Source: an uncultured Pseudomonadota bacterium (GTDB lineage: Bacteria > Pseudomonadota > Alphaproteobacteria > Rs-D84). Taken from it: a DNA stretch of 64,000 nucleotides. Where the stretch lies: contig CAMOGA010000006.1 in NCBI GenBank assembly GCA_946613885.1, positions 4,309 to 68,308 on the forward strand. The letters run 5' to 3'. Position numbers and translations under genes: made by a program. The notes under the pieces are model-generated. The model was not told the DNA's origin and did no database searches. It worked only from the letters and a program-made list of their open reading frames with translations. Positions 5,949-41,701 of this stretch are shown one piece after another (position 1 is the first letter of the stretch; every line of letters starts with the position of its first letter).

Positions 5949-5950
5949 TT

Positions 5951-22647: not shown

Positions 22648-22665
22648 CACAGAGAAGGGGGGGAT

Positions 22666-22701
22666 AAAAAAACAGGTTGCGGGAAATGCAACCTGTTTTT
22701 T
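22666..22701. terminator. Bidirectional intrinsic terminator
   Basis: A-run-CAGGTTGC-7nt-GCAACCTG-T-run. Confidence 0.85.
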
Positions 22702-22720
22702 ATCTTATTAATCAATTTGT

Positions 22721-25700: not shown

Positions 25701-26278
25701 GTCGTACACAATTCAAAATCAGCACCGCATATATCTTCACGGTTTAGACAACGTGTATAATTGCGCACACATTGTTCAGTGCTGAATTGATTTGAAATCC
25801 CTGCGCCAACAATCAATTGATCCAACACAGAACCAGATTTTGGATATGTGTAACGTGTAACCTCGCCATTACTGTTTTGTGATGACACATCGGACAGTGC
25901 ATTAATCGCAGATGTTCCAAACAGTGCATTAACACCGCTGGGTTGGCATTGATATAAAACACTTAAACATTTGGGCATTTGCGCATGGAATAAAACATTT
26001 GTTGTGCATTCTTCAAAATCAGCACCGCACGCATCAGACGACTTGATACAATCAGTATATTTTTCAATACATTCTGAATTATCCAGATATGACGCAGTTG
26101 AAGAACCGGTTGTAGTAGTGGTTGTTCCAGCAACATTACCGGCAACAATATGTCCCGCAATTGACGGTAAACGTGATGCGGCCTGATTACGAACACTTGC
26201 CCGTGAAGTTGCCGCAAATGCGCCAGTTGACATAACAACAGCCATTAATAAACCAAATGTTTTGATGATGTGTTTCAT
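22721..26278 (-). CDS. Large Cys-rich secreted/membrane-anchored hypothetical protein (~1185 aa)
   Basis: Signal peptide MKHIIKTFGLLMAVVMSTGAFA after a GGAG RBS; repeated Cys motifs; two Gly/Ala-rich hydrophobic segments near the C-terminus. Confidence 0.85.
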   Translation of the reverse strand: MKHIIKTFGLLMAVVMSTGAFAATSRASVRNQAASRLPSIAGHIVAGNVAGTTTTTTGSSTASYLDNSECIEKYTDCIKSSDACGADFEECTTNVLFHAQMPKCLSVLYQCQPSGVNALFGTSAINALSDVSSQNSNGEVTRYTYPKSGSVLDQLIVGAGISNQFSTEQCVRNYTRCLNREDICGADFELCTTEKEFKKQAILCASTLARCQSAGKIALFGSVANADSLELSDKKSRLFTMFENGQQLAAMNAVKTCQKVTDNCLINACTKNPLRCVEGISLAAIDQVDIIESGTTVSNRTVQNNPDDPTYSTEVTTKTTVQKLLKSQCLETIGGNQYCHITYREKTPSKKDLVDIDLQEDVFALAYAARKDSVNTRVQELVKKFDTKAKDACYETIKSCAMRSCGGGLGSVCYSLARGIKSGQLSARPTIDSVNINKEPYEDIQSGCAAIVNADANCIYAATASDTDGYSYTYFDETNTTFNRLFPQYDAMGRAAQKDPIGAVGKLNALLATSYNDAAIENMKKQCQTVALSCVKSMCGKDYVNCYRNRTDIVSGTYNTGTKLDSSMNKMGGVLDYNIVIGLCMNNVKSSSVCEEHLKVATAAWREEQDTSSWGVKPNRTVRDAWNDANTTTATEITNSDGVLIACTTPDNADDICIGREEAPTNGDCVGIMDEDGCVYSKEVRQNYTEYALENGAKTLFQTLLRDVEKEAQAMYNAKLTKEQNVCLSNNTGGIMGASNQNGSTFMWVKLHGNKIPKNYAMQGLKENQFTASNDLYGSFCRVRVTIQSDDKAIQDNLGSAATAYFAVGDTFTCGSWIDQKTLDKITEKVAEQARKEAGEGSEKSHWALWGTSAAAALASGIGGYALADAVQKNNGSLGGILSGTSKKTAEKHNKAAESCLTEIDKARKAYYGIANERNNVNAATQFQTALNHAVKARTYARSAGADISGTNLSMGTYEDAINEVITIKGREAEAAIDIYDWDSEDINKVRTTEGNIRSADSTQCGPNCQRILDELRTLEKTVSADNATAILAKLNDAKKECGNSCKPIEIPTQLRIVTKYHRDAVEAVADQTYGQQTGGKRFQDSDAYKTFLTDMNKLETACKNVEDEAGHSKAGLNVAVGAVSAAVGGGITFAAIKAAQRIKYENAANEAVKAWMEEVGDHITCYVGTEEVGTYGDPIALEIN

Positions 26279-26359
26279 CTCCTTACTCCATTTTTGCTTT
26301 CCCTTTATTTTAACACATATGTAAAAATAAAAAAAGCAAAAAATGAAATATAAAGACAA

Positions 26360-27043
26360 TTATTTTGAATTAATTTTTTTTAATACAGATTTTACTATAT
26401 CTGCGCACAACATACCGATAAATGCGCCCAATATCACATCGCCGGCCCAATGTGCACCAACATAAACACGTGATATACCAATTATAATTGCCAATGTCCA
26501 CGTTGCCCATTTTATACGTGGTGTTAACATACCCAACATTACCAGTGCTGCAAAACTGACCGCTGTATGACCAGATGGCATTGAATTAAATACTGTTTCA
26601 AATGTTCCAGGAACGAAAAATGTTGCATTTAATGCCTCGTAAATAACAGGACGCGAACGACCAATCAAAAACTTTAATATTCCGGTTGTCATTATTGCCA
26701 ACATAACAGAACACAAAACATAAAATGCATTACTGTTTTTGATTTTAATAAACGCAAATCTAAAATCGTTTTCATTTGTAATGGCTTTGTAAATAAAAAA
26801 TACCAACACAGATAAAATTGATATAATCAGCCATATTTTCGCACTGAAAATTTTGCCCATTAAAACGGCAATACCGCACATCCAGCCACCACCAAATGTC
26901 CACGGATTGCATTTTGGATTATGAATCAAAGAATACAATATTTTATCGCCACCAAAAACACACGCCAAAACCAAAGCAATTGTAATTATTGCGCCAATTA
27001 AAATCCATTTTAATTTCAAAGTATTATCTTTGCGTATAAACAT
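26360..27043 (-). CDS. PAP2 family membrane phosphatase
   Basis: K...GRSRP, PSGHT, SRVYVGAHWAGDV motifs plus TM segments. Confidence 0.92.
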   Translation of the reverse strand: MFIRKDNTLKLKWILIGAIITIALVLACVFGGDKILYSLIHNPKCNPWTFGGGWMCGIAVLMGKIFSAKIWLIISILSVLVFFIYKAITNENDFRFAFIKIKNSNAFYVLCSVMLAIMTTGILKFLIGRSRPVIYEALNATFFVPGTFETVFNSMPSGHTAVSFAALVMLGMLTPRIKWATWTLAIIIGISRVYVGAHWAGDVILGAFIGMLCADIVKSVLKKINSK

Positions 27044-27044
27044 A

Positions 27045-28556
27045 TTATATCCCCATCAGTTTGTTATAAATTGTTTTTTCGGTTAATATCTTTGTTCCCA
27101 ATCCTAATGCCATTGCATCTTCGTCGTTGCCATCTGTGATGTTTGGACATGCACGGCGCAGGGCATTAACATCAACATCTGTTTTTGCATTATAATCGTG
27201 CGATTCAAATTCATCATTGATTACATTTAATAAAAATACATCCCTTTGCCCATCGTTTCGAATATTGGACAAACATACCAAAGGAAACACACCACGTCCA
27301 TCCAATTTATTACCTTGACCTGTTTTCACAGATTTATTAAACAATTCCAATACACCACCATTTTTTAAATCCAGCATCGTGGCAATTCTGGCACGACCAG
27401 ATGTTGGTGTGCCAATTAACACACCACGTTTGTTTTCATAAAATGTGGCTGCTAATGCCTCTGCAGTACCATTGGTGGTATCAGATATAAAAACAACCAC
27501 AGGTAAATTTGTTATTGCATCGCCACCTGGAACAATTTCGGTTTCATCTACCGCTGTCTCAGAAATGCGCATAACAGGTTTTTGACCAACAAATAATCCT
27601 GCTAATTTTGCCATGGCGCGTTCATCATCGCCACCACTGGTTCTTAAATCTAATATAATACCATCAACATCTGAATGTTTATTTAATGCCTCGTTCACAA
27701 TATCTACTGCGCCATCTGATATTTTATGAATAATAATTTCTAATATGCCGTTGGTGTTTTCATTTTTGCCACGATATATAATATCTGCATCTGCCAACAC
27801 AACGGTTGCACGACGCAACGTCACATTACGATTTCCAAATGGGGTTAATAATTTCAATTTTGCCGTTCCAGAATTATATCCAGATAAAATTCCTGTAATA
27901 TCTTTGTCAGATATATTTGCCACACGTTGACCATTTATTTCTGATATAATATCGCCCTGATGCATGTCTGCAATATCAGATGGTGAATCTTTGAATATTC
28001 CGGTCACACGTAAATTACCACGTTCATCACGACCGGCCTCGAATCCTAAACTGGTTAAAATTCGCGTATCGTTATCATTTATAGAATCACGTGAATAAAC
28101 ATAATTTCCATTTTGATCAATTCCAGATAGTAATGCATTTACGACAATATTATATAATTGTGCACCATTTAATGCACGTAAATGCGCATCGCGTTCACGC
28201 ATCTTTAATAACAAAGCAGTCGTAATTTCGCCATAACTGTGCCAATCTTTTGCGTCTGGATATGGGAAATTAGCAATTAATTCATCGCCCCATACCAATA
28301 CTGCGCGATTACCAGTCGCCGCAATATGTGCATCTGGGTTTAATTTTTCTAAACTTTCAATCGCAACATCAATGTTTTTACCCGCCCAATTAACAGAATC
28401 TAATTTTTCGTAAATATCTGCAAAAACATCAGATGTTGCATGTACATCTAAACCCGTTTGAATTTGTGGGGAATCACGAAATAAATCAGTTGCAGAACAA
28501 AATAATGGCAACATCCCCAGACCAAATGTAAACAAAATCTGTACAGGTTTTATCAT
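27045..28556 (-). CDS. S41/CtpA-like PDZ protein with substituted catalytic residues
   Basis: Signal peptide, PDZ (VTGIFKDSPS....GDIISEING), ILDLR, GV.IG.PTSG, GV.P; dyad positions read G and R. Confidence 0.75.
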   Translation of the reverse strand: MIKPVQILFTFGLGMLPLFCSATDLFRDSPQIQTGLDVHATSDVFADIYEKLDSVNWAGKNIDVAIESLEKLNPDAHIAATGNRAVLVWGDELIANFPYPDAKDWHSYGEITTALLLKMRERDAHLRALNGAQLYNIVVNALLSGIDQNGNYVYSRDSINDNDTRILTSLGFEAGRDERGNLRVTGIFKDSPSDIADMHQGDIISEINGQRVANISDKDITGILSGYNSGTAKLKLLTPFGNRNVTLRRATVVLADADIIYRGKNENTNGILEIIIHKISDGAVDIVNEALNKHSDVDGIILDLRTSGGDDERAMAKLAGLFVGQKPVMRISETAVDETEIVPGGDAITNLPVVVFISDTTNGTAEALAATFYENKRGVLIGTPTSGRARIATMLDLKNGGVLELFNKSVKTGQGNKLDGRGVFPLVCLSNIRNDGQRDVFLLNVINDEFESHDYNAKTDVDVNALRRACPNITDGNDEDAMALGLGTKILTEKTIYNKLMGI

Positions 28557-28585
28557 TTTATCTCTCCTTTGACCTGGGGTGTTTT

Positions 28586-29449
28586 TTAATAATCTGTTTC
28601 ACGCAAATTGAAATGGTACAATATCACGTTTGAAATGTAGATACTGGTTAATGTGCCGCTGACAACAGAGAATGTCATTGCAATTGCAAATTCGCGTAAC
28701 ATTTGACCGCCAAACAGATAAATACCAACCATTGCCAAAATTGTAGAAACACTGGTCATGATTGTTCGATATAACATTTCGTTAATGGACAAATCAATAA
28801 CATCACTGGCTGGCATTTTATGATATTTTTTTATGTTTTCATCAATTCTGTCGTAGTTTACAACTTTATCATTAACAGAATATCCCAATCCCATTAATAT
28901 AACAGCAATTGCCGTTTGGTTGAATTCCAATCCCATAATAGAAAAAAATCCAAACATTAAAATCATATCAAATATCAAAGACACAAATGAACCAACTGCA
29001 TATCCACCGCGATAGCGAACCCAAATATATACAGACATCATAACAAACGATACTAACAATGCCCATATACCACCACGGATTAATTCACCACCAATTTTTG
29101 GACCAACAACCTGAACCTGAGAATAGGTGACATTATCGCCCAGAATATTTTTTATTTCTGTTACGCGTGCATTTTGTTGTTCATCGGTTGAACCCTTGGG
29201 CAATCCAACACGTAATAAAATGGCGTTTCCATCAACAGATTGTAATTCTGGTTTAAATTCAGATAAATCATGACGCATTTTATCAATGGTATATTCTGGA
29301 TTGGCGGGTTGCACCTCCATCGAGATACCGCCAGAAAAGTCAATACCATAATTAAAACCTTTGAAACAGATTGATAATATGGACAACACAATACAGATTG
29401 CAGAAATCCAATATGATAATTTACGATATTTCATAAAATGCAGTTTCAT
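28586..29449 (-). CDS. secF: Protein translocase subunit SecF
   Basis: GIDFSGG, VGPKIG, GYSVND.VV.YDRI.EN, RTIMTS. Confidence 0.95.
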   Translation of the reverse strand: MKLHFMKYRKLSYWISAICIVLSILSICFKGFNYGIDFSGGISMEVQPANPEYTIDKMRHDLSEFKPELQSVDGNAILLRVGLPKGSTDEQQNARVTEIKNILGDNVTYSQVQVVGPKIGGELIRGGIWALLVSFVMMSVYIWVRYRGGYAVGSFVSLIFDMILMFGFFSIMGLEFNQTAIAVILMGLGYSVNDKVVNYDRIDENIKKYHKMPASDVIDLSINEMLYRTIMTSVSTILAMVGIYLFGGQMLREFAIAMTFSVVSGTLTSIYISNVILYHFNLRETDY

Positions 29450-29477
29450 AACATAACTCCTTGATGCACTTTGTTTT

Positions 29478-31037
29478 TTATTTCATTTTTATATAACCAA
29501 TTTTTTTGCTTTTGCCATGCATGTAATAATCGACAAAAACACGTGTTAACAACAAACATGTAAATAAAGTTGTTGCCACACCAATTGATAATGTGACCGC
29601 AAATCCACGAATTGGACCCGCACCGAATTGGAACAAAATCAACGCACAAATCAAATTAGTTAATTCGCCATCCATAACGGTCTTGGTAGAACGGGTAAAT
29701 CCATAATCAATTGCACGTAATGTTGGTATTCCGGCACGGACTTCATCACGAATTCTTTCAAACGGTAATATGTTTGCGTCCACCGCCATACCCAATGTTA
29801 ACACAATACCTGCAATACCAGGCAATGTTAATGTCGCACCCAACAGTGCAGATACACCGATTATCATGAATAAATTCACAACCAAAACGATATCTGCAAA
29901 CACACCGAATATACCATATAATAATGCCATAAATATTAATATGAATAACACACCAACCACAGCACCAATTTTACCGGTTGCAATTGTATCTGCACCCAAT
30001 CCGGCGCCGACAGTGCGTTCTTCGATGACCTCCAACGGGGCAGGTAATGCGCCACTGCGTAATAACACAGCCAAATCTTTTGCGCCCTGTAATGTAAATC
30101 CGCCGGATATTTGACCACGTCCACCGGGTATTGGTTCACGAATTGTTGGGGCAGACAAAACCTGGTCATCCAAAACAATCGCAAAACGTTCATTAACATG
30201 TTCAGTGGTTAATTTTGCAAAACGACGTGTCCCAGATGCATCAAATTCAGTTGTCACAACAGGCATATTGTTTTGATCAAAATCTGCCTGGGAATTTTTC
30301 AAACTGTCACCTGATACTTCAACACGGGAATAGACCGCAACTTTTTGACCTGGTGCATCCATATAATCCAAAAACACCGTACCAGATGGTGCGTGTCCAG
30401 ATTGTAATTGTTCACTTGTGATGTTTTCATTGACCAAATGGAAAGACATTTTTGCTGTTTTTCCAATCAATTCTTTTATACGTTCTGGATTATCAACACC
30501 TGGTAATTGAACCAAGATATATTTTCCGCCCTGTGATTGAATAGATGGTTCTTTTGTCCCCAGCGCATCAATACGACGACGAACAATTTCGATACTGCGT
30601 GACATTGCATCACTAATCATTTCTTCGCGCGCCTTGGATGTATAAGAGACAGTTAGATTTTGACCAGACGATGAAATATCTGCGCTGGTTCCCAAAACAC
30701 TTCTTAAACGACCTTTGGCTTTGGATACTTCGTCACTGTCACGAACAACCAGCGTAACAGAATTTCCAGTATTACGTAATTCAGAAAAACGTATGACACC
30801 TTTGCTTCTGTCTATCATGGCACTACGCACCTCGTCATATAATTGGGCGTATTTTTCCTTTAACATGACATCAGTATCGACCTCTAATAATAATTGTGCG
30901 CCACCTTTTAAATCCAACCCCAATGGAATTGGTTTTATCCAAGATGGAAAATAATTTGCCATTTTTGGCGATATTGTAGGCACCGCCAACAACACACCGA
31001 ACAATGATATAAAAATAATTGCTAATTTTCTAAACAT
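29478..31037 (-). CDS. secD: Protein translocase subunit SecD
   Basis: LGLDLKGG, RRRIDALG..EP, FAIVLD, LRSGALP, LTLPGIAG, GMAVDAN. Confidence 0.97.
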   Translation of the reverse strand: MFRKLAIIFISLFGVLLAVPTISPKMANYFPSWIKPIPLGLDLKGGAQLLLEVDTDVMLKEKYAQLYDEVRSAMIDRSKGVIRFSELRNTGNSVTLVVRDSDEVSKAKGRLRSVLGTSADISSSGQNLTVSYTSKAREEMISDAMSRSIEIVRRRIDALGTKEPSIQSQGGKYILVQLPGVDNPERIKELIGKTAKMSFHLVNENITSEQLQSGHAPSGTVFLDYMDAPGQKVAVYSRVEVSGDSLKNSQADFDQNNMPVVTTEFDASGTRRFAKLTTEHVNERFAIVLDDQVLSAPTIREPIPGGRGQISGGFTLQGAKDLAVLLRSGALPAPLEVIEERTVGAGLGADTIATGKIGAVVGVLFILIFMALLYGIFGVFADIVLVVNLFMIIGVSALLGATLTLPGIAGIVLTLGMAVDANILPFERIRDEVRAGIPTLRAIDYGFTRSTKTVMDGELTNLICALILFQFGAGPIRGFAVTLSIGVATTLFTCLLLTRVFVDYYMHGKSKKIGYIKMK

Positions 31038-31056
31038 AACTTTACCCCTGTGAAAA

Positions 31057-31371
31057 TTATTCTATATTTGCGATGGCGTTTTTGTTAACTTCGATAACAA
31101 CGCCTTTGGCAATTTCCATTTCAATTGTTTTTTCATTTACTTTCTTGACAGTTCCATAAATTCCAGCCGCCAAAACACGATTGCCAACCTTTACAGAATC
31201 CAGCATCTTTTGATATTCTGCCAAACGTTTTTTATTTGGGCGTATCATAAACAGATATAAAATTGCGATAATAATAACACAATATAAAATCATACCCCAC
31301 ATACCAGTTTGTTGTGACATTTGAGGAACGTTTTGACTCACTTGGTTTACAACTTCTGTTGTTTCATTCAT
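31057..31371 (-). CDS. yajC: Preprotein translocase subunit YajC
   Basis: TM helix then MIRPNKKR, KVG.RVLAAGIYGTV; upstream of secD. Confidence 0.93.
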   Translation of the reverse strand: MNETTEVVNQVSQNVPQMSQQTGMWGMILYCVIIIAILYLFMIRPNKKRLAEYQKMLDSVKVGNRVLAAGIYGTVKKVNEKTIEMEIAKGVVIEVNKNAIANIE

Positions 31372-31437
31372 GAATAATCTCCTTTATTTATAAGACAACA
31401 CTAGTAAAAAAACAAAAATAAGTAAAGAAAAAACTAT

Positions 31438-33189
31438 CTAGCCCCGTTCAAACAATGTATCCAATTCAGATATGGGGATAATTTTATATACTGGCCGCCC
31501 ATGATTGCATTCACCGCCATGTTCAGTTTTTTCAATATCTCGCAAAATTGCGTTCATTTCCGCCATATTTAATTTGCGCCCAGCACGGACAGAATGATGA
31601 CAGGCAAAATTTGCCAGTTTCAGATGTAATTTTTCCTGTAATCGCGAAGAATGTCCATTGGCGCGCACTTCATCTGCGATTTCATGAAAACAATTTTCCC
31701 AATTCAAATCCCAATCAGACGGTTTTTCAAATATTGCAACAGATGTGTCACCAAATGCATCAATATGTAATCCGCATTGTTTTAATTCATCAGATACAGT
31801 TAACACAGATACCACTTCTTCTGGACGCATGTTTATAACGATTGGTGTTAATAAAGGTTGTGTTTTAATTTCGTGTTTGCGCAATTTTTCATATGTAATT
31901 CGTTCGTGTGCAGCGTGTTGATCAACAATAACAAAACCGTTTACATTTTCGGCCAAGATATATTTATCATTTAATTGTCCAATGACGCGTCCCAGTGGTA
32001 AATCAAATTCAGATTCATTTGTTTGTGGCACGTATTCATGTTGATTGTCTTCTGTCTTGTTAAATATGTTTATATTTGCGGTTGGTTCTGTGACAAAATG
32101 TTTCATATCAACATCGAAACGGGCAGGGCGCGAATTAAAAAAAGTTTGTGTTGATGGAATTTGAAAATCATGACTAAAATTGCTGTTTGTGTTTTGTGTA
32201 TTGATTTGTGTATTTTGATTTAATGTTTTTGACAACACATCACGCAGAGATTTTATTATAAAAGAACGCACATGTGTTGGTTCTAGAAAATGAACTTCTG
32301 TTTTTGAAGGTGATACATTTACATCTACATTACGTGCAGGCAATTCCAAATACAATGCACACAAAGGAAATTCGCGGGCATGCATAACATCCATGTATGC
32401 AGCACGCAGTGCGGTCACTAAAACCTTGTCTTTGACAGGGCGACCATTTACAAATAAATATTGGTCAATTGATGATGCGCGTCTTAAAGTTGGATTTGAT
32501 ATAAAACCGTATATTTTCATATCTGATGACGTAGATTTTGCATCCACATGCAACATTTGGTTACGAACATCGGGACCCATAATTGCGATAACACGTTCCA
32601 ATAAATCTTGGTCTTTGGGAAAACGCCATTTGTTATTAAGAACAAAACCGACATCTGTTCGTGCCATTGCCAAACGTTTTATTGTATCCAATACAGATAA
32701 CATTTCTGCCCGGTCAGTGTGTAAAAATTTTAATCGCGCAGGTGTTTTGCCAAATAAATTTGAAACCCGAATACGTGTTCCGCTTTCCCAATCAGACGGT
32801 TTTATTTCCATATTATCAACATTTAATTGTAAACCATGTTCCATGCCATCATGATATGTATCAATAACCATATTTGATACAGAAGCAATAGACGGTAATG
32901 CCTCGCCACGAAAGCCCATAAAATTAATATTTAATAAATCGTCATCTGGTAATTTAGATGTTGCATGTCTCAATACGCAATTTGCCAAATCTTCACGTGT
33001 CATACCACGTCCGTTATCAATAATAGAAATCATTGTTCGTCCACCATCGACAACATCAACAATAATTTGATTTGCGCCTGCATCCAGTGCATTTTCCACT
33101 AATTCTTTCACAACACTGGCGGGTTTTTCGACCACTTCGCCGGCGGCAATTTGGTTAACCAGAAAATCAGGCAACACGCGTATTGACAT
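31438..33189 (-). CDS. mutL: DNA mismatch repair endonuclease MutL
   Basis: NQIAAGEVVE, KELVENALDA, GFRGEAL, DQHAAHER, C.HSVRAG, CNHGRP. Confidence 0.97.
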   Translation of the reverse strand: MSIRVLPDFLVNQIAAGEVVEKPASVVKELVENALDAGANQIIVDVVDGGRTMISIIDNGRGMTREDLANCVLRHATSKLPDDDLLNINFMGFRGEALPSIASVSNMVIDTYHDGMEHGLQLNVDNMEIKPSDWESGTRIRVSNLFGKTPARLKFLHTDRAEMLSVLDTIKRLAMARTDVGFVLNNKWRFPKDQDLLERVIAIMGPDVRNQMLHVDAKSTSSDMKIYGFISNPTLRRASSIDQYLFVNGRPVKDKVLVTALRAAYMDVMHAREFPLCALYLELPARNVDVNVSPSKTEVHFLEPTHVRSFIIKSLRDVLSKTLNQNTQINTQNTNSNFSHDFQIPSTQTFFNSRPARFDVDMKHFVTEPTANINIFNKTEDNQHEYVPQTNESEFDLPLGRVIGQLNDKYILAENVNGFVIVDQHAAHERITYEKLRKHEIKTQPLLTPIVINMRPEEVVSVLTVSDELKQCGLHIDAFGDTSVAIFEKPSDWDLNWENCFHEIADEVRANGHSSRLQEKLHLKLANFACHHSVRAGRKLNMAEMNAILRDIEKTEHGGECNHGRPVYKIIPISELDTLFERG

Positions 33190-33190
33190 A

Positions 33191-33661
33191 TTAATCCCGG
33201 AATTTTACATCAACGATTTCAAATTCTTTTTCACCACTGGGTAAACGTACGGTGCAAGTATCGCCAACACAATGTCCAATTAACGCACGTCCAACCGGCG
33301 AAGTGCAAGATATAACCAATCGCCCATCAGATTCAATATCTGACAAAATTCGACATTCCATTTTATTTCCGTCTTCGTCTTCTGTGATAACTTTTGCACC
33401 GAAAACGACACGATTGCCAGATAAATTATCAATATCAATGATTTGGGCATTTTCGATAGTATTTTCAATAAATTGTATGCGTTTATCGATTTGACGTTGT
33501 TTTTCTTTGGCGGCACTATAATCTGCGTTTTCAGACAAATCGCCCAAAGAGCGTGCCCATTGAACAGTTTTTAATATTTCAGGTCTTTGATTTTCTTTTA
33601 AATCTTTTAATTCATTGACCAGATTATCAAATCCCTGACGTGAAATTGGTTTTTTTTCCAT
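33191..33661 (-). CDS. greA: Transcription elongation factor GreA
   Basis: ARSLGDLSENADY.AAK, FGAKV, IS..SPVGRALIG. Confidence 0.95.
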   Translation of the reverse strand: MEKKPISRQGFDNLVNELKDLKENQRPEILKTVQWARSLGDLSENADYSAAKEKQRQIDKRIQFIENTIENAQIIDIDNLSGNRVVFGAKVITEDEDGNKMECRILSDIESDGRLVISCTSPVGRALIGHCVGDTCTVRLPSGEKEFEIVDVKFRD

Positions 33662-33746
33662 GAATACACCTTTTGATTTTACAATAACAATAAAACATAA
33701 AATTTAATTTTGCAATTATGAATTGAAATATATATAATATAAGATT

Positions 33747-34814
33747 ATGTTCAGATTAAAACCAAAAGTTGTAAGTTTATTTTTATTACGCCGATTTTTT
33801 ATCAGTTTTTTTCTGGTAATGTTAACGGTATGTGGGGTAATATTTGCGGTCACATTTGTTGAACGTATATCATCTAATCCGGATGCCTGGGCCACAGTTG
33901 TTGATACATGGATACGTTTATTGGAATATATACCGATGTTTTTACCATTGGCGGTATTTATGGGGACATTGGTTGCGTTTTATAATCTGACGAAATCTTC
34001 AGAATTGATAATTATTTCCGGAACAGGCATGTCGCCATTTCAAATTGCACGTCCATTTTTGCTTGGTGCGTTTTTAATAGGTGTTTTTGCAACATGTATT
34101 GTGAATCCTTATTCTGTTGATTTATCAACAAGTCATTTAAATGGGTATCAATTAAAATTGGTTGATAATGCGATATGGTTGCGTGAAACGTCAGATGATG
34201 GTTTTATGACTGCACGTGCCAGGGGATTAAACATTAATCGCGATAAAAATATTGTGTTCAGTGAAGTAATGATATTGACCCAGGGTAATGATTTTAAATT
34301 GCATGAACGCATAACATCACACCGTGCTGTTTTGGATGATAATGGTATACATATTGACAGGGCGCAAATCACAGATGCAAACGGTCAGACAAAGACACAA
34401 TCGACACACGTAAAAACAAAATTAACCCCATCAACAGTTTTGGACAGATATTTACAACCAGATCAAATATCTTTTTGGAAATTGCCAGGATTTATAAAAA
34501 ATATGAATGCGGTCGGTGTTCCAACGCACGGTCATTTGATGCAGTTTTGGACTTTGTTATTTTTACCATTGAATATGATGGCTATGGTAATGTTGGGGAT
34601 TGCGTTTTCCCAAACGAAACAGCGTCGTAATTATTCATTTGGGGTAAAATTCAGTTTGGGAATATTAACATGTTTTGCGTTGTATTTTGTTGTGAATCTG
34701 TTTAATGCGCTGGGGAATACAGGGATGTTGCCACCGTTGGTTGCGATTATCGCGCCCCAGATAATAATTATTGCAGGTGCATGTATGTTTATAACCAGTT
34801 TTGCCACGATATAG
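33747..34814 (+). CDS. LptF/LptG family LPS export permease
   Basis: 3 TM + periplasmic beta-jellyroll + 3 TM layout; L.K.SELII..G.G.S, WLRE; LptG-like. Confidence 0.85.
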   Translation: MFRLKPKVVSLFLLRRFFISFFLVMLTVCGVIFAVTFVERISSNPDAWATVVDTWIRLLEYIPMFLPLAVFMGTLVAFYNLTKSSELIIISGTGMSPFQIARPFLLGAFLIGVFATCIVNPYSVDLSTSHLNGYQLKLVDNAIWLRETSDDGFMTARARGLNINRDKNIVFSEVMILTQGNDFKLHERITSHRAVLDDNGIHIDRAQITDANGQTKTQSTHVKTKLTPSTVLDRYLQPDQISFWKLPGFIKNMNAVGVPTHGHLMQFWTLLFLPLNMMAMVMLGIAFSQTKQRRNYSFGVKFSLGILTCFALYFVVNLFNALGNTGMLPPLVAIIAPQIIIIAGACMFITSFATI

Positions 34815-34823
34815 GATTATATT

Positions 34824-34952
34824 ATGCCACTACGAAAAAAAACGAGTAATAAAAAATATATAATTTGGGCGATAATAATCGTGTTGTTGATATTAATGGT
34901 AATATCGTTTTCGCCACATCCTGAATTTAACGAAGTGATTTTATATCCATGA
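34824..34952 (+). CDS. Small single-TM protein (42 aa), missing from the ORF track
   Basis: MPLRKKTSNKKYIIWAIIIVLLILMVISFSPHPEFNEVILYP*; TGA overlaps the xerD ATG (ATGA). Confidence 0.7.
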   Translation: MPLRKKTSNKKYIIWAIIIVLLILMVISFSPHPEFNEVILYP

Positions 34953-35812
34953 AATATATAGATGTATTTTTAGAGGCATTATCTGCGGAAAAAGGGCGCG
35001 GTAAAAATACATTATCTGCATATGCATCTGATTTGCATCATGCAGAAAGTGTAATTGGCGATTTATTGCATGCAACAGATAAAGATATACAAAATTATTT
35101 ATCGCATCTGCCGGATAAACCGTCATCCATTGCGCGCAAGGCCAGTTCTTTACGAACATTTTATAAATTTTTAATGTTGGAAAAAATCATAACAAAAAAT
35201 CCGACAACAAATTTGGAATTACCCAAACGTGGTCGTGCGTTGCCGAAATATTTATCCCCAGAAGAAATTGAATTATTAATATCATCATCTGGTGATATAA
35301 AAACATCTGTTCGGTTGCGTTGCATGTTGGAATTATTGTATGCATCTGGATTGCGAGTATCTGAATTGTGTGAATTACCGCTATCTGCGAATTTGGGGGA
35401 CAGGTTGTTAATACACGGCAAAGGTGCCAAAGAAAGATTGGTTCCTATGCACCAAACAGCGCAAGAGGCATTACAAAAATGGTTGTCTGTGCGTGGGGAT
35501 AATGATTCAAAATATGTATTTCCAACAAATTCATCATCGGGTCATATAACACGCGATGGTTTTTTCAAGATATTAAAAAAATGTGCTGTATTGGCGGGAA
35601 TTGATCCAAATCGTGTTTCACCGCACGTGTTGCGACATTCGTTTGCATCGCATTTATTGGCTGGCGGTGCGAATTTGCGTGTTATACAAACAATGTTGGG
35701 ACACGAAGACATATCGACCACGCAAATATATACACACGTGTTGCCTGATAAATTGCGCGATACAGTGGAAAATGCGCATCCATTGGCACATAATGAAATA
35801 AAGGATATATAA
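34949..35812 (+). CDS. xerD: Tyrosine recombinase XerD
   Basis: GLRVSEL, GKG.KER.VP, SPHVLRHSFASHLL.GGA.LR.IQ.MLGH.DISTTQIYTHV. Confidence 0.9.
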   Translation: MKYIDVFLEALSAEKGRGKNTLSAYASDLHHAESVIGDLLHATDKDIQNYLSHLPDKPSSIARKASSLRTFYKFLMLEKIITKNPTTNLELPKRGRALPKYLSPEEIELLISSSGDIKTSVRLRCMLELLYASGLRVSELCELPLSANLGDRLLIHGKGAKERLVPMHQTAQEALQKWLSVRGDNDSKYVFPTNSSSGHITRDGFFKILKKCAVLAGIDPNRVSPHVLRHSFASHLLAGGANLRVIQTMLGHEDISTTQIYTHVLPDKLRDTVENAHPLAHNEIKDI

Positions 35813-35814
35813 AT

Positions 35815-36315
35815 ATGATAACGAAATGTGATCATCCTGGGTGTACCAAGGCAGGCATTTGTCGTGCCCCAAAAACGCGTGATTTACGTGAATATTGGAT
35901 GTTTTGTCGCGAGCATGCTGCGGAATACAACAAAAATTGGAATTATTATGCCAATATGACACCGGATGAAATCGATGCAGAATGGGAACGTGAAACATTT
36001 GGCATTGCCGACAAAGACAAAGAAAACGTTAATAAGAACGAGGCAGAATATATCCAATTCCTAAACGATTTTTTAACAGGTCGCAACAGTTTTGATAAAA
36101 TGCCGGCCAAGAAAACAGTGCCATCACAAATTATATCTGCGTTGCGAGTATTTGATTTACCTGTGACTGCATCGTGGCGGGAAATAGGTGTTAAATATCG
36201 TGCGTTGGCAAAAAAATATCATCCAGATACATCGGTAAACGCGGATAAATCTGCAACAGAATTTACACGTATAAATTCTGCATACGAAACATTAAAAAAA
36301 TATTTCAAGAAATAA
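35815..36315 (+). CDS. J-domain protein (alphaproteobacterial type, C-terminal J domain)
   Basis: CDHPGC...RAPK, FC.EHA.EYN..WNY, KKYHPD. Confidence 0.88.
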   Translation: MITKCDHPGCTKAGICRAPKTRDLREYWMFCREHAAEYNKNWNYYANMTPDEIDAEWERETFGIADKDKENVNKNEAEYIQFLNDFLTGRNSFDKMPAKKTVPSQIISALRVFDLPVTASWREIGVKYRALAKKYHPDTSVNADKSATEFTRINSAYETLKKYFKK

Positions 36316-36346
36316 TTCACAACCTACACACACACAGGGAAGGGGA

Positions 36347-36406
36347 CCACGCTGCGCTCGCAATGACCCCCTCCGGCTGCGCCGCACTCCCCCGATGGGG
36401 GAGAAT
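36347..36406 (+). repeat. Fragment of family A (36347-36367) fused to a family B unit (36366-36406)
   Basis: CCACGCTGCGCTCGCAATGAC matches 22125-22145 at 20/21, then CCCCCTCCGGCTGCGCCGCACTCCCCCGATGGGGGAGAAT. Confidence 0.85.
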
Positions 36407-36533
36407 TTGAAAAAATTTTAATTTTTTTTTACGAAAAAAATCCGGAAAACTGGGCATCTCAGAAAAACGCAAAAAAAATCAAGCGAAAAAATATGAAAAA
36501 AATGCTTTTTCGCTTTTTTGACCGCTTTTTTGG

Positions 36534-36636
36534 CGATTCGATTTGTGGTATAATATGGGCAAGACCTTAATATTAAGGTTAGATCTAACAAGCCCCCCAC
36601 AAGCATGGCTTGTGGGATAAACAAAGGAAGGAAACA
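36534..36636 (+). promoter_or_regulatory. Promoter/operator/RBS of B-repeat gene 1
   Basis: CGATTCG-N8-TATAAT with extended TGn, palindromes ACCTTAATATTAAGGT and GTTAGATCTAAC, hairpin CCCACAAGC-ATG-GCTTGTGGG, AAAGGAAGGAAAC. Confidence 0.7.
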
Positions 36637-37932
36637 ATGAAAAAAATATTTCTAACATCTGGGATTATTGTTTGCATGGCGTGTCCCGCGTTTGCAACAG
36701 GTATTGGATTCCCTGCAGATGCTCAAACAGGTGCTGTACCAAGCGGTATACAATCTGGTGCCTGTACTGAACCAAAATTGGGTGTGTATGAAGGTGATAC
36801 AACTTTGTCCGCTATTTGGCAGGTCAATTATGTCGAGATGAAATTGAATAAGAATATCGGTACAACGGCGCCCACTGGTGGTGCAGAAAATACAACATAC
36901 GAGCCAGCTTTATTCTTGGTTGGTGGCAATGGTGTATATACTAGATCGGGTGATAGTGATACTGATTATGCATTTACCAAAGTAAACACCGGTGACACAG
37001 CATTAACAACTCTGCCAGCGGGTATAGACGTAAACTATACGTTGCACACAGATAAACCAACAGGTGCCACAGGTACAGTTAGTGGTGGAACCAGTACAGC
37101 CAAAAACAGAGCTTTCTTAGGATTTTATGCAGACACTGATACTACTGTAAACGGTGGAACACCATTTATTGGTTCAGATGGTAAATTAACGGCTGCTGGT
37201 AATACGGCCGCGACCGGCTATGATAATACTGCACATCAATGGAAAGCGAAATACGAACATGTTCACCCAACTGTGGTCGATCCGGAATTGTATGGTTATA
37301 CTTTTAAAGGATGGGCAGCCAGTGCTGAAGATGCAACAGCCGGAACTGTAATTGCGAATTTCGCAGACGATAAAATTGGTGAAAATACACATAGATATGC
37401 ATCATGGAAAGCAAATACATATACTGTAGAATATAAGTGTGGCGATGGTGCAACAGGTACCGCACCAGCTGATGCCACGGCAACATATGATGCGTCATTT
37501 ACCTGGGCAGGAAACAATGATACAGCCGAAGGTACAGGTTGTAAAAAAGCCGGTCATCATTTCACAGGTTGGACCTGTAAAGTTGCAACCACAGGTACAG
37601 TTGACGGTACTGAAGCAACAATCATAACAAACGGTGGTGTCTCATGTTCTGCTAATGCGACGGGTGTCGGTGATTGCACAGGAAATGAGGTTACCAAATG
37701 GACAGAAGCAAATCTTCAATCAGGTGCCACAATTACTTGTACAGCACAATTTAGTGCCAGCAGCATCACTATTACATGGGATGATAATGATGGCAACAAC
37801 AACACAAGTGTATCAGGTGGAACACCAACTTGTACTTATGGTGCAGATGTCACATTGCCAACCGCACCAACCAGAACAGGTTATACATTCAAGGGATGGA
37901 AGGTCGCAAACGAAACACAAACCGAACCTTAA
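36637..37932 (+). CDS. Secreted InlB B-repeat (Flg_new)-like surface protein, paralog 1
   Basis: Signal MKKIFLTSGIIVCMACPAFA; repeated GYTFKGW / GHHFTGW ... A.W motifs. Confidence 0.8.
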   Translation: MKKIFLTSGIIVCMACPAFATGIGFPADAQTGAVPSGIQSGACTEPKLGVYEGDTTLSAIWQVNYVEMKLNKNIGTTAPTGGAENTTYEPALFLVGGNGVYTRSGDSDTDYAFTKVNTGDTALTTLPAGIDVNYTLHTDKPTGATGTVSGGTSTAKNRAFLGFYADTDTTVNGGTPFIGSDGKLTAAGNTAATGYDNTAHQWKAKYEHVHPTVVDPELYGYTFKGWAASAEDATAGTVIANFADDKIGENTHRYASWKANTYTVEYKCGDGATGTAPADATATYDASFTWAGNNDTAEGTGCKKAGHHFTGWTCKVATTGTVDGTEATIITNGGVSCSANATGVGDCTGNEVTKWTEANLQSGATITCTAQFSASSITITWDDNDGNNNTSVSGGTPTCTYGADVTLPTAPTRTGYTFKGWKVANETQTEP

Positions 37933-37951
37933 TCGGCTCGTGTCAAACAAC

Positions 37952-37980
37952 AAAAACACCGGTTCGTCCGGTGTTTTTTT
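37952..37980 (+). terminator. Intrinsic terminator
   Basis: AAAAACACCGG-TTCGT-CCGGTGTTTTTTT; same sequence at 39168-39198. Confidence 0.88.
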
Positions 37981-37982
37981 AA

Positions 37983-38116
37983 CCCCCCTCCGGCTGCGCC
38001 GTACTCCCCCGATGGGGGAGAATTATTTATAATGGCTGCGCCGCACTCCCCCAATGGGGGAGAATCCCCACAACACCTGAGAATAAATTCGCCCCCAGTG
38101 GGGGTAATTCTGCCCA
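37983..38116 (+). repeat. Composite palindromic repeat block (family B): two 32-bp cores at 42-bp period plus a truncated inverted unit
   Basis: Cores GGCTGCGCCGYACTCCCCCRATGGGGGAGAAT at 37992-38023 and 38034-38065. Confidence 0.92.
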
Positions 38117-38194
38117 GGGGAAAAGGGGAAAATTCCCACAAATCCGCCAAAAATAAAAAAAGATAAAATTTTCGTATTTTTTTGCTTGCTTTAC

Positions 38195-38279
38195 CGATTC
38201 GTTTTTTTCTAGAATCCAAACATGGGCTTAATATTATGGGAAGGGTATTAAGTTAGATCTAACAAAAAGGAAGGAAACT
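38195..38279 (+). promoter_or_regulatory. Promoter/operator/RBS of B-repeat gene 2
   Basis: CGATTCG-N8-TAGAAT, ATGGGCTTAATATTA, TATTAAGTTAGATCTAACAA, AAAGGAAGGAAAC; mirrors 36534-36636. Confidence 0.7.
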
Positions 38280-39128
38280 ATGAAAAAAATATTTTTAACT
38301 TCGGGACTTGTCCTGTGTATGGCGTGTCCTGCATTCGCTGATTTTGCATCCACTGACACTGGTACAGTGGCAAATTCCTGCGATTATTCTCACTTGGGCG
38401 TATACAGCGGTCCAACACAGTTGGATGCTATTTGGAATGCTAAGAAATTTAATGTATCATATGTTGCAAATAAACCACAGAACGCAAGTAATAACGTTAC
38501 GGGAACTCCAGAACAAGACACAGTAGATTTTGATGATGAATATAGCGTATCAAGTAATGAACCAACATTGACAGGTTGGAATTTTTCGGGATGGTCTGCT
38601 GATCACAATATGAGTACTGGTGCAGCAGAAACAACAGATTATGATGCAGGAGATAGTGTGACAAACTATAAAGTTGTTGGTAATACAGTATTAACTGCAC
38701 AATGGACAGCAAAAACAACAACAGTGTCTTATGTTTGTGGCTCTGCAACAGCAGGCAGCACCGCTATTCCGAATGGAACAGCAACATATGACAGCGAGTT
38801 TGAGTTCGCAGCTGCGCCAACATCAACACAATGTACACCAGCCACTGGTTCAGAATTTACCGGATGGTCTTGCGGTACTGCTGGATCACACGACGCTGGC
38901 GATACAGTCACTTGGGCTGTTGAAGATGCAACCATTACATGTACTGCGCAATGGGGTGCAACAACCATCAGACCTTCTTGGAATATCAATATTCCAGGCA
39001 ATACCACTTGGGCTGCGGATTCAGAAGCTACGACAGAATGTTCGTACGGCAGCAACGTCACATTGCCAAACAATGTACCAGAAAGACCTGGTTACGACTT
39101 TGGTGGATGGAAAGTCTCCAACGACTAA
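38280..39128 (+). CDS. Secreted InlB B-repeat (Flg_new)-like surface protein, paralog 2
   Basis: Signal MKKIFLTSGLVLCMACPAFA; TGWNFSGW, GSEFTGW, PGYDFGGW motifs. Confidence 0.8.
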   Translation: MKKIFLTSGLVLCMACPAFADFASTDTGTVANSCDYSHLGVYSGPTQLDAIWNAKKFNVSYVANKPQNASNNVTGTPEQDTVDFDDEYSVSSNEPTLTGWNFSGWSADHNMSTGAAETTDYDAGDSVTNYKVVGNTVLTAQWTAKTTTVSYVCGSATAGSTAIPNGTATYDSEFEFAAAPTSTQCTPATGSEFTGWSCGTAGSHDAGDTVTWAVEDATITCTAQWGATTIRPSWNINIPGNTTWAADSEATTECSYGSNVTLPNNVPERPGYDFGGWKVSND

Positions 39129-39167
39129 TCTATGGATGTTTAATAACCAATTTGGTTGTACAAAAAC

Positions 39168-39198
39168 AAAAAACACCGGTTCGTCCGGTGTTTTTTTT
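39168..39198 (+). terminator. Intrinsic terminator
   Basis: A-run-CACCGG-TTCGT-CCGGTG-T8. Confidence 0.88.
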
Positions 39199-39200
39199 AA

Positions 39201-39378
39201 CCCCCCTCCGGCTGCGCCGCACTCCCCCAATGGGGGAGAATCATTTATAATGGCTGCGCCGTACTCCCCCGATGGGGGAGAATACCCATAACGCCTGAGA
39301 ATAAATTCGCCCCCACTGGGGGCGGGGGCCACGAAGTGGCGCGGGGGGTATAGCGGTGACGGGGGGTAATTCTGCCCA
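39201..39378 (+). repeat. Composite palindromic repeat block (family B): two cores plus a full inverted variant unit
   Basis: Cores at 39210-39241 and 39252-39283; minus strand then reads CCCCCCGCGCCACTTCGTGGCCCCCGCCCCCAGTGGGGGCGAA. Confidence 0.92.
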
Positions 39379-39463
39379 TGGGGGCTATGATACACGCTCA
39401 TAAATTTGGATTTTTTTCTTTTGATGCTTTTTTTTATGATACTTTTGTGATAAAATACGAAAC

Positions 39464-41701
39464 ATGGATAAAAAATCAAATTTTTTACCAGAAAGTTTAT
39501 CTGTTGTCCTGCGCAAATTTTCTATGCGTGCAGGTGGTTTATTAATTTGTTTGATTTCTGTTTTGTTGATTTTAACACTGTTTTTTTCTAATCCTTATCT
39601 GTCGGGATTTGCCGTGCGTGGTTCGTTTGGCGCACATGGAATTTTTGGTAATGTTGTTGCGTTTTCCCGCTATGTTGTCGGGTTTATACCAACACTGTTT
39701 TTGATATTATGTCTGGGCAGATTTGGGTTAAGTATGTTTATCGGATGGGATGAAGAACGTGCGTTTGAATATAATTTTCTGCGCGGCTTTGTCACATTAT
39801 GTGTTGGTTGCGCGGCATTTGGATTAATCGTTCCACATGGCAGTTTTGGTGGCTTATTCGGTGCAATTGTTGGTCGTGATATCGGTGGTTTATTGGGGGC
39901 AGGGTCTTTGCCTGTGGGAATTTTATTGTTGGCATTATTTATGTTTATGGCTGGGATTTTATTACATATAAAATGGCATCATGTAATGGGGGCAATAAAA
40001 ACAACATGGAAATTAACACGATGGTTGTTATCTGCGTTCCGTTTAATAAAACCTGTGGAACCGGTTGATGAAGAAACATCTGAAGACGAAGAAGAAGAAA
40101 CCGAAGAAGAAACCGAAGAAGATGTTGAACAAGAACCAGACGAAAAACCAAAACGCAAACGTGCGTCACGTAAACGTGTTGTAAATGAAGATTCTGATGA
40201 TGGCGTTGTTCATGAATACGAATTACCTGATCCGGCATTTTTGGAAAAATCTGTATTTGGAAAAAACGTCGTGACCCCAGAATTAAAACGAAACGCCGAA
40301 GCAATGGAAATACATTTTGCACAATACAACGTTCATGGTACTGTGACTGGAATACGCCCAGGACCAATCGTGACATTGTATGAATTTATGCCTGATGATG
40401 GAACGAAAATCGCAGATGTCACGAAAACCGTCAAAGATATGACGCGTGCGATGGCCACAGAAAATATTCGTATTGCACATATACCATCAACACAACTGAT
40501 TGGTGTGGAAATGGTGAATTTAAAACGTCAAACTGTGCGGTATCGTGGATTGATTGATAACAGTTTATTTATAAATTCTAAATATAAAATTCCTTTGGCG
40601 TTGGGTGTGGATATTGGCGGAAATCCAATGTATTACGATTTGGCAAAAATGCCACATATGTTAATTGCAGGACGTACAGGTTCTGGTAAATCTGTATTCG
40701 TTCAAACAATTATTACGTCTATTGTTTATCATTTTACACCTGATAAATGCAAACTGATTATTATTGATCCTAAGGGTGTTGATTTTGGATTCTGGGATGA
40801 TATTCCACATTTAATAACACCAATTGTTAAACTGGATGCCGCCGCCGCAGTTAATGCATTAAAGTGGGCTGTGCGTGAAATGGAAGAAAGATATAAACAA
40901 TTACAATTGGTTAATGCGCGTAATATCGAAAGTTATAATGAAACCATGGCACAAAAACGTGAAAGTGGTGAAAAATTAACACGTCAGGTTGCTGTTGGAA
41001 CAGACCCAGAAACGGGTGCGCTGGAATTTGAAACCCAAGAAGTGGATATGTCTGATATGCCATATATTGTCATTATTATTGACGAGGTTGCAGATTTAAT
41101 GTCCTTGGCACGTAAAGAGGTTGAAGCATGTGTTCAACGTATCGCACAAAAGGCACGTGCGGCGGGTATTCATTTGGTTATGGCAACACAAAGACCCGAT
41201 GCAACAACCATTACCGGTGTTATCAAGGCGAATTTCCCGACACGTGTATCTTTCCAGGCACGCAGTGTAATTGATTCTATGACCACATTGGGTGAAAAGG
41301 GTGCAGAACAATTATTGTCTATGGGTGATATGTTGTTCAGTGAAGCAGGTCGTGTTCCTGTACGAATTCATGCAGCGTTTATTTCTGATGAAGAATTGAC
41401 AACTATTGGTGATTTCTTGCGCGAACAGGGTGAACCTGAATATGCCGAAGGTGTCACATCCGAAGATGGTGGCGAAGAAGGTATTCCTGTTCCGGGTGAA
41501 TCTTCATCCAAAGAGGCAAAATCTAACGATTTATACGAACAGGCCAAAGAAATCGTTTTACGCGATAAAAAACCAACAATCTCATACATACAACGCAGAT
41601 TGGGTATCGGTTATAACAAGGCAGCAACCTTGATTGAACGTATGGAAAACGAAGGTGTTGTCAGTACGCCTGATGCAGGTGGCAAAAGACATATTTTATA
41701 A
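39464..41701 (+). CDS. ftsK: DNA translocase FtsK
   Basis: N-terminal TMs, acidic linker, MPHMLIAGRTGSGKSV, IIIDEVADLM, AQKARAAGIH..MATQRP, gamma domain S.IQRRL.IGYNKAA. Confidence 0.97.
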   Translation: MDKKSNFLPESLSVVLRKFSMRAGGLLICLISVLLILTLFFSNPYLSGFAVRGSFGAHGIFGNVVAFSRYVVGFIPTLFLILCLGRFGLSMFIGWDEERAFEYNFLRGFVTLCVGCAAFGLIVPHGSFGGLFGAIVGRDIGGLLGAGSLPVGILLLALFMFMAGILLHIKWHHVMGAIKTTWKLTRWLLSAFRLIKPVEPVDEETSEDEEEETEEETEEDVEQEPDEKPKRKRASRKRVVNEDSDDGVVHEYELPDPAFLEKSVFGKNVVTPELKRNAEAMEIHFAQYNVHGTVTGIRPGPIVTLYEFMPDDGTKIADVTKTVKDMTRAMATENIRIAHIPSTQLIGVEMVNLKRQTVRYRGLIDNSLFINSKYKIPLALGVDIGGNPMYYDLAKMPHMLIAGRTGSGKSVFVQTIITSIVYHFTPDKCKLIIIDPKGVDFGFWDDIPHLITPIVKLDAAAAVNALKWAVREMEERYKQLQLVNARNIESYNETMAQKRESGEKLTRQVAVGTDPETGALEFETQEVDMSDMPYIVIIIDEVADLMSLARKEVEACVQRIAQKARAAGIHLVMATQRPDATTITGVIKANFPTRVSFQARSVIDSMTTLGEKGAEQLLSMGDMLFSEAGRVPVRIHAAFISDEELTTIGDFLREQGEPEYAEGVTSEDGGEEGIPVPGESSSKEAKSNDLYEQAKEIVLRDKKPTISYIQRRLGIGYNKAATLIERMENEGVVSTPDAGGKRHIL

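Follow-up and report, generated by a model that had tools for sequence, protein, structure and literature searches.

The opa genes of Neisseria and the babA/babB/babC genes of Helicobacter pylori are dispersed or tandem genes that have their own promoters, conserved ends and hypervariable parts, and that undergo gene conversion between paralogs as well as import of alleles from other strains. In Anaplasma, a member of the Alphaproteobacteria with a reduced genome, a single msp2/p44 expression site is fed by many promoterless pseudogenes. Here, we examine two tandem genes, P1 (431 amino acids, aa) and P2 (282 aa), in the genome of a Candidatus Enterousia bacterium (G000; 946 kb in 27 contigs, 91% complete). 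Both lie in a stretch of 64,000 nucleotides (the window) that corresponds to positions 4309-68308 of contig C6, and positions below are those of the window unless a contig is named. In our view, P1 and P2 probably belong, as tandem paralogs, to a lineage-specific subfamily of InlB B-repeat (Flg_new) proteins, in which recombination guided by a conserved frame swaps the cores of the genes.

Candidatus Enterousia and the order Rs-D84 consist of uncultured bacteria from the gut of farm animals, with genomes below 1 Mb and almost no biosynthesis (PMC12306168). InlB B-repeat proteins (PF09479, TIGR02543) resemble P1 and P2 in hidden Markov model family and in predicted beta-grasp fold (2y5p), and the InlB B-repeat adhesin-like proteins of gut methanogens and bacteria are secreted, as P1 and P2 are predicted to be, and are likewise present in many copies, host-associated and fast-evolving (PMC9723798). 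In contrast to these proteins, P1 and P2 belong to a Gram-negative alphaproteobacterium with a tiny genome, carry no LPXTG, GW or other known anchor, and have the final third of a repeat at their N terminus and the first two thirds of one at their C terminus. Like the opa and bab genes, they are part of a multigene family with conserved ends, a hypervariable core and exchange tracts between copies and strains, but they encode tandem beta-grasp repeats rather than beta-barrel outer-membrane proteins, and their host is an uncultured commensal. With msp2/p44 they share the conserved flanks, the hypervariable core exchanged by recombination and a reduced-genome alphaproteobacterial host; unlike msp2/p44, the genes here are complete and the pool of alleles is apparently held across strains. 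No description of a conserved expression frame combined with allele swapping was found for the Flg_new family in the literature searched. The locus would represent a familiar bacterial way of surface variation in a group where it had not previously been described.

Two units built on a common frame

All of the elements listed in a preliminary description of this DNA, from promoter, palindrome and ribosome-binding site (RBS) to terminator and GC-rich repeat block, were found in place in both units (Table 1). The RBS AAAGGAAGGAAAC is identical in the two units, and so is the 14-mer GTTAGATCTAACAA at 36578 and 38252, which occurs at these two sites only in the genome. The signal peptides share 16 of 20 residues (81% in DNA over 73 nt), the terminator hairpin and its T-run are 97% identical, and the GC-rich block (122-131 nt) reaches 93% identity. 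It had been proposed that the non-coding flanks are much more similar than the coding middles. This holds for the RBS, the terminator and the GC-rich block and does not extend to the whole of the flanks, as the 5' non-coding flanks of the two units are 67-79% alike and the short 3' untranslated regions (3'UTRs), from stop codon to terminator, are different. In unit 1 the palindrome is followed, ahead of the RBS, by an extra 9-bp hairpin, and in unit 2 a 13-nt insert lies upstream of the palindrome. The middles were rightly described as variable in that their DNA aligns no better than shuffled sequence; they are not unrelated: both consist of B-repeats that have diverged, to which P1 adds an insert of its own of about 150 aa, and the mature proteins are 36-37% identical.

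The same frame is found beyond the species. At 20 loci in about 10 other metagenome-assembled genomes of Enterousia from the ruminant or horse gut, the RBS, signal peptide and terminal half-repeat are as in P1 and P2, the terminator hairpin is often shared too, and the full-length mature proteins measure 280-597 aa. A signal peptide of the P1/P2 type occurs in Candidatus Enterousia merdequi, in Candidatus Enterousia sp. and in isolate 82_22-119, which has been placed in Enterousia (PMC12306168). Two promoter motifs recur upstream of family genes in other species, TTTGTG(G/A)TATAAT and TTTTTTTCTAGAAT. The genus was searched (257 species) for the leader pattern TATTAAG(G)TTAGATCTAACAA, which was found in the own genome only; the shorter palindrome GGTTAGATCTAAC is present in three more species, always in the leader of a family gene, where a canonical TTGACC-17-ATAAAAT promoter precedes it by about 25 nt. 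A search of Rfam returned nothing at family threshold within 36200-39600.

Probable exchange of cores and conversion tracts between strains

Strains were compared on short contigs from metagenome or Logan assemblies, together with the metagenome and metatranscriptome runs X2 and X17. In L075 (Logan contig, SRR24653754), ftsK matches that of the window at 1749 of 1770 positions (98.8%). Identity amounts to 97.6% in the ftsK promoter, to 97.4% in promoter plus leader of P2 and to 95% in the signal peptide, whereas the mature coding sequence (CDS), from the cleavage site after AFA to the terminator, is 51-64% identical in DNA and 49% in protein. Synonymous divergence (dS) for this pair is saturated in the core (1.03) as against 0.047 in ftsK, which argues that the alleles are far older than the strains and were exchanged rather than mutated in place. 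The L075 allele combines a P1-like cap and 3' end with a P2-like middle.

A smaller event is recorded in contig L077 (AUXO018387976.1), identical to the window over 36434-38335 (1.9 kb) bar 28 differences that all fall within 37914-37951, where it matches exactly the sequence following P2 in the window. This 38-nt patch represents gene conversion over a short tract, delimited by the conserved GGATGGAA(G/A)GT on one side and by the terminator hairpin on the other. Contigs L072 and L073 each carry a P1 ortholog followed by the P2 promoter (93-95% identical), and in both the last codons and 3'UTR of the ortholog are of P2 type. The ortholog of L072 is 78% identical in protein and 86-87% in CDS, with 100% identity across the portion of promoter and leader that the contig includes (132 nt); for L073 the values are 75% in protein, 72-89% in CDS, 96.6% in promoter and leader and 94% in the J-domain gene. 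The major strain of run X2, at a depth of about 50, has the J-domain gene, promoter and signal peptide of P1, and ftsK; no contig of it matches the P1 core, where depth is zero, and one contig fuses the P2 leader to a P1-type cap. Among the minor strains of X2 there are a P1 allele of 89.5% identity and a P2 allele of 94% whose 3' end is of P1 type. Mosaic paralogs also occur within the genome, such as C1:122539 and C10:1951, in which an unrelated middle is framed by 385 nt of 94% identity at the start and by 149 nt of 90% at the end. Another match of the metagenome scan, L078, was discarded as an unrelated chance match.

The sharp borders in L075, the patch in L077 and the mosaic paralogs bear out the earlier suggestion of recombination at conserved flanks. 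The family had further been said to expand, contract and shuffle: shuffling is seen in L075, in L077 and in the mosaics, and neither expansion nor contraction was seen at the P1/P2 locus, every strain-level contig being compatible with two copies. Two stable copies, free of mosaicism and of repeat-linked paralogs, are not what the data describe; the family counts about 24 members, with mosaics and with paralogs adjacent to the repeat.

Could P1 and P2 simply be ordinary old tandem paralogs, alike through a dispersed repeat and a constrained signal peptide, with no ongoing exchange? Their low protein identity and their 5' flanks, 67-79% alike, would agree with this, as would the presence of the GC-rich repeat after unrelated secreted-protein genes and the two copies with which all strain contigs fit. 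We nevertheless judge it unlikely, as it leaves unexplained the P2-type patch in the otherwise identical L077, the swapped 3' ends in L072, L073 and L075, the 49% core that stands beside a 98.8% identical ftsK, and the mosaic paralogs of the genome.

Under the exchange of cores that we favor, each gene would form its own transcription unit, with promoter, GTTAGATCTAAC leader, strong RBS, Sec signal peptide, mature protein and intrinsic terminator. The expression frame would comprise a 5' part, from promoter to signal peptide, and a 3' part, from terminal half-repeat to terminator. This frame would be kept between paralogs, strains and species, and the population would maintain old alleles of the mature part that have diverged widely. 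Whole cores would be replaced between strains by homologous recombination, the crossovers falling within the conserved frame, and short conversion tracts would carry pieces between the tandem copies and between other paralogs, producing mosaics. Recombination of the RecA type, acting on DNA from other strains, is the presumed agent. Genes comEC and dprA are present in the genome, and DNA uptake through their products may supply the donor DNA. Diversifying selection could be the reason for the variation.

Several observations weigh against this interpretation. The ratio of nonsynonymous to synonymous divergence (dN/dS) of P1 orthologs is 0.4-0.8, against 0.05 for ftsK; as it does not exceed 1, positive selection is not demonstrated, and relaxed constraint combined with recombination would also fit these values. 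No second-strain contig reaches all the way from the J-domain gene to ftsK, and copy number and order are therefore known only piecewise. The strain contigs are short, and a chimeric join at a repeat is possible in any single one. A consensus promoter scan missed both putative promoters, which rest on motif conservation across species, and a location of P1 and P2 at the surface, as well as a role in adhesion or partner recognition, is suggested by their domain family. The pattern nonetheless recurs in independent samples and in RNA.

Short contigs also raise the question of an assembly or binning artefact, in which mis-joins at repeats in mixed-strain metagenomes would have created the alleles, the inversion and the placing of the two genes in tandem. 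The locus is rich in repeats, many homologs lie on contigs of 1.5-2 kb that end in repeats, and the identical second assembly, L071, probably derives from the same data. Such an artefact is hardly credible in view of the independent contigs that reproduce the joins from J-domain gene to P1 (L073), from P1 to the P2 promoter (L072, L073, L077) and from the P2-site gene to ftsK (L075), and of RNA contigs that run unbroken from leader into core.

About 24 genes of so small a genome are given to one secreted repeat family. Together with the old alleles behind an almost invariant frame and with transcription in the gut, this suggests that proteins of the P1/P2 type are the cell's main variable interface. 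The locus would also be a natural example of recombination borders that coincide with functional borders, namely the signal-peptide cleavage site and the terminator, and the conserved frame could be used to design primers for surveys of allele diversity in metagenomes.

Expression, leader palindromes and repeat tracts

Transcripts of both units were found in the bovine-gut metatranscriptome X17, as a 1223-nt contig over a P1 allele (92.7% identical) and a 787-nt contig that comprises the P2 leader and signal peptide followed by a different core. The 5' end of each RNA contig coincides exactly with the first G of its palindrome GTTAGATCTAAC (36578 for P1, 38252 for P2), 18-29 nt downstream of the start expected from the conserved -10 boxes. 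A 5' end shared in this way could mark the start of transcription or, alternatively, result from processing and be stabilized by a stem-loop. The palindrome may act as a 5' stem-loop of the mRNA or as an operator. No RNA contig of X17 covers the J-domain gene or ftsK, contig depth being a poor measure of expression.

Tracts of (AC)n with n of at least 5 number only seven in the genome. In five genes of the sister subfamily the tract follows the ATG and precedes the signal peptide, reading THTHTH, two in frame and three out of frame; three (AC)n-bearing genes have no in-frame ATG. From the placement of their tracts, these five genes are candidates for slipped-strand phase variation. They recall the opa genes, in which a CTCTT repeat tract in the leader-coding region causes phase variation, except that the tract here belongs to the sister subfamily and neither P1 nor P2 contains one.

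Perfect palindromes in the leader, the position of xerD 0.8 kb upstream and the (AC)n tracts, which would place phase variation in the wider family, might also be read as signs of a programmed device, be it Xer site-specific recombination, an invertible promoter of the fim/mpl type, silent cassettes of the pilE/pilS type or a diversity-generating retroelement (DGR). We hold such a device to be very unlikely. The xerD-lptG-J-domain block is a housekeeping block in 20 of 20 relatives, none of which has cassettes there. The palindrome lies within the transcript in both units and in three other species, instead of forming a pair of inverted repeats on either side of a segment. In four DNA runs, no strand-changing joint was seen at either leader on assembled contigs, in which rare variants are dropped. 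No silent copies were seen, all members whose 5' end is on a contig having a signal peptide and those examined an RBS, and P1 and P2 are both transcribed, unlike a system with one expressed locus and promoterless donors, such as pilE/pilS, msp2 or vlsE. A DGR is further contradicted by differences that comprise all 12 substitution types as well as indels, cover the whole mature CDS and are not adenine-specific. The syntenic, housekeeping character of xerD in genomes devoid of cassettes led us to reject exchange of the XerD/dif or integron-like kind.

Hairpin repeats downstream of the genes

Repetitive extragenic palindromic (REP) sequences and bacterial interspersed mosaic elements (BIMEs) of enterobacteria and pseudomonads, including the REPINs associated with RAYT, are the closest described counterparts of the GC-rich repeat, which we call family B. 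In both, the units are short, GC-rich, imperfect palindromes, single or in tandem pairs, that lie in intergenic regions just 3' of genes and vary in number between strains. Family B differs in having about 22 copies only, concentrated after secreted-protein genes, in its location downstream of a complete intrinsic terminator, and in the lack of a Y1/RAYT transposase in the genome. The search for this transposase (PF01797) gave no match in the 91%-complete own genome and detected the family in six control genomes; a RAYT was therefore dismissed as mobilizer of the repeat.

Five copies of the 41-nt unit occur at the locus, each with the hairpin CTCCCCC-NNN-GGGGGAG. In the genome, 18 of 25 C5-N-G5 hairpins are within 450 nt of family genes; three of the remaining seven resemble ordinary terminators, and four lie beside other secreted-protein genes. 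The terminator hairpin itself is found immediately 3' of family genes in seven of its eight genomic copies. In other species of the genus, the family-B unit is multi-copy in a minority. The preliminary description had repeats separating every cassette. An association exists, as the hairpin counts show, and it is neither general nor exclusive: 17 of 24 family genes are without the repeat, which also follows other genes. The content of the GC-rich block varies by strain, L073 and L075 having other or fewer units at the same places, and the repeat hence accompanies the genes without defining the border of the cassette. Family-B repeats are REP-like hairpins that accompany the 3' ends of secreted-protein genes and are not needed for exchange. 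Units outside the family were noted in G000 at C1:22090-22400, C2:4860-5060 and C10:17120-17260; they follow a 204-aa protein resembling an outer-membrane protein and a 528-aa secreted protein, and lie beside the start of a 1576-aa secreted protein.

Genomic position and origin

Synteny was compared in 20 related species of the genus. In all of them the J-domain gene is followed by trxB and a PAP2-family gene by ftsK, the gap being about 45-90 nt in 18 of 20. From this order it follows that about 14.3 kb (window about 22000-36330) are inverted in the own genome, with breakpoints at about 21950-22040 and 36316-36410; the inversion is absent from all 20 relatives. P1 and P2 occupy the right breakpoint, and an Ssn-nuclease cassette together with a gene for a 1185-aa secreted protein the left one. 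The left breakpoint carries the Ssn-associated hairpin repeat, and the right one a fragment of it fused to a family-B unit. L073, which comes from an independent sample, joins the J-domain gene to P1, and the arrangement is therefore real in the lineage. The location between xerD/J-domain gene and ftsK was thus correctly described for this genome and is the product of an inversion that the relatives lack; a conserved synteny of the cassettes between these genes is refuted by the ancestral order of the 20 relatives. Immediately upstream of ftsK, the intergenic site of two other species contains unrelated genes for small secreted proteins, in L058 (G058) at 11085-12834 and in L065 (G049) at 10018-12563, and this spot may be a recurrent slot for variable exported proteins.

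The GC content of P1 and P2 is 43.6%, compared with 36-40% in neighboring genes. GC content at third codon positions (GC3) is 0.27-0.30, equal to that of the neighbors, from which we conclude that the DNA is native; the extra overall GC was traced to a Gly/Ala/Thr-rich composition and to the repeats. A foreign origin of the two genes was ruled out on the basis of this match in GC3.

Table 1. Positions of features at the P1/P2 locus and of (AC)n tracts elsewhere in genome G000
Feature	Position	Strand	Description
Intergenic junction after J-domain gene	36316..36410	+	also right breakpoint of the 14.3-kb inversion
Junction contents	36326-36336; ~36343-36367; 36367-36407		(AC)5 run; Ssn-associated repeat fragment; one family-B hairpin unit
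Putative P1 promoter	36518..36554	+	TTGACC, then extended -10 (TGGTATAAT)
P1 leader	36563..36616	+	palindromes ACCTTAATATTAAGGT and GTTAGATCTAAC (36578-36589)
P1 leader hairpin	36596-36616	+	CCCACAAGC-ATG-GCTTGTGGG; leader fold z -3.6
P1 RBS	36623..36635	+	AAAGGAAGGAAAC; kept across species
P1	36637..37932	+	InlB B-repeat protein, predicted to be secreted, 431 aa
P1 parts	36637-36696; 36697-36819; ~37751-37929	+	signal peptide; cap, then variable middle; terminal half-repeat
38-nt patch	37914..37951	+	last codons and 3'UTR of P1; P2-type in contig L077
Terminator 1	37952..37982	+	hairpin AAAAACACCGGTTCGTCCGGTGTTTTT and T-run
Family-B block 1	37983..38125	+	41-nt hairpin units 37984-38024 and 38026-38066; tail containing CGCCCCCAGTGGGGG
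Putative P2 promoter	38180..38215	+	CGATTCGTTTTTTTCTAGAAT type
P2 leader	38252..38278	+	palindrome GTTAGATCTAAC, then RBS AAAGGAAGGAAAC (38266-38278)
P2	38280..39128	+	InlB B-repeat protein, predicted to be secreted, 282 aa
P2 parts	38280-38339; 38961-39125	+	signal peptide, then cap and two full B-repeats; terminal half-repeat
Terminator 2	39168..39200	+	hairpin as in terminator 1
Family-B block 2	39201..39380	+	units 39202-39242 and 39244-39284; longer GC-rich tail
(AC)n genes of sister subfamily	C1:15937, C11:25106, C1:106300, C5:67814, C8:12256		tract between ATG and signal peptide
Other two (AC)n tracts	C1:1457; window 36326-36336		upstream of family genes, the second just upstream of P1

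Protein family and predicted fold

Both proteins exceed the curated cut-offs in the scan for Flg_new repeats that had been suggested for them, with 39.3 bits for P1 and 31.1 bits for P2 in Pfam (PF09479, cut-off 27), and with 34.3 and 24.1 in TIGR02543 (cut-off 20.95). Relatives bear the NCBI name 'InlB B-repeat-containing protein'. Read from their sequences, P1 and P2 have a typical Sec signal peptide (MKKIFLTSG..CMACPAFA) and are predicted to be secreted through it. The AlphaFold2 model of mature P2 (pLDDT 91.3, pTM 0.74) consists of tandem beta-grasp domains, and a Foldseek comparison of this model with the InlB B-repeat structure 2y5p gave a TM-score of 0.68-0.75 with a probability of 0.99-1.0. 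Flg_new proteins of gut microbes are adhesin-like and evolve fast (PMC9723798), and P1 and P2 are probably adhesin-like as well.

The family is widespread in the genus, Flg_new repeats being present in 92 of 101 genomes with 1 to more than 50 matches each. The own genome has about 24 open reading frames with the family cap and/or B-repeat, which fall into three groups and account for 5% of the genome. Subfamily 1, defined by the signal peptide given above, comprises P1, P2, C11:10515 and the minimal 119-aa member C3:30909; subfamily 2 counts two genes; and the about 13 genes of subfamily 3 continue, after cap and first half-repeat, with other C-terminal domains. In a search of 5.8 billion proteins, P2 had no relative closer than the 49% of the L075 allele, and no P1 ortholog was found in the nearest GTDB species, which gave local repeat matches only.

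The ends of the proteins are complementary, in that the N-terminal cap aligns to the last third of a B-repeat and the C-terminal end corresponds to the first two thirds. A cysteine of the cap and another of the terminal half-repeat are present without exception in the homologs aligned (71 of 71), and the invariance extends to 14 of 14 N-terminal modules of the own genome. Cap and half-repeat might form a split beta-grasp domain, so that the conserved frame would serve as a structural clasp as well as homology arms; we put this forward tentatively, as possible rather than likely. Such a split domain could close one chain into a loop that takes any number of repeats, or join chains head to tail in a surface fibre or layer. 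The AlphaFold2 model of P2 has two well-formed repeats and almost no strands assigned in the cap or the terminal half, and that of the 119-aa paralog made of cap plus half-repeat gave no confident model (pLDDT 43). If there were such a clasp, DNA borders and structural borders would coincide, and cores could be swapped between strains and paralogs with export and assembly intact, which would make the frame a plug-in display scaffold in Enterousia.

Cysteines 14 and 234 of mature P2 (about 38379-38381 and 39039-39041) are possible partners in a disulfide joining the two ends of the protein. The gene at C3:30909-31268 of G000, with signal peptide, cap and terminal half-repeat only, effectively encodes a circularly permuted single B-repeat. 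In the closest related species, contig L051 (G007) has at 5108-6529 a gene for a 473-aa secreted protein that ends in ..GKTFKGWRFVKPSGN, a terminal half-repeat of the family type, and that sits in a variable gap between mutL and yajC-secD.

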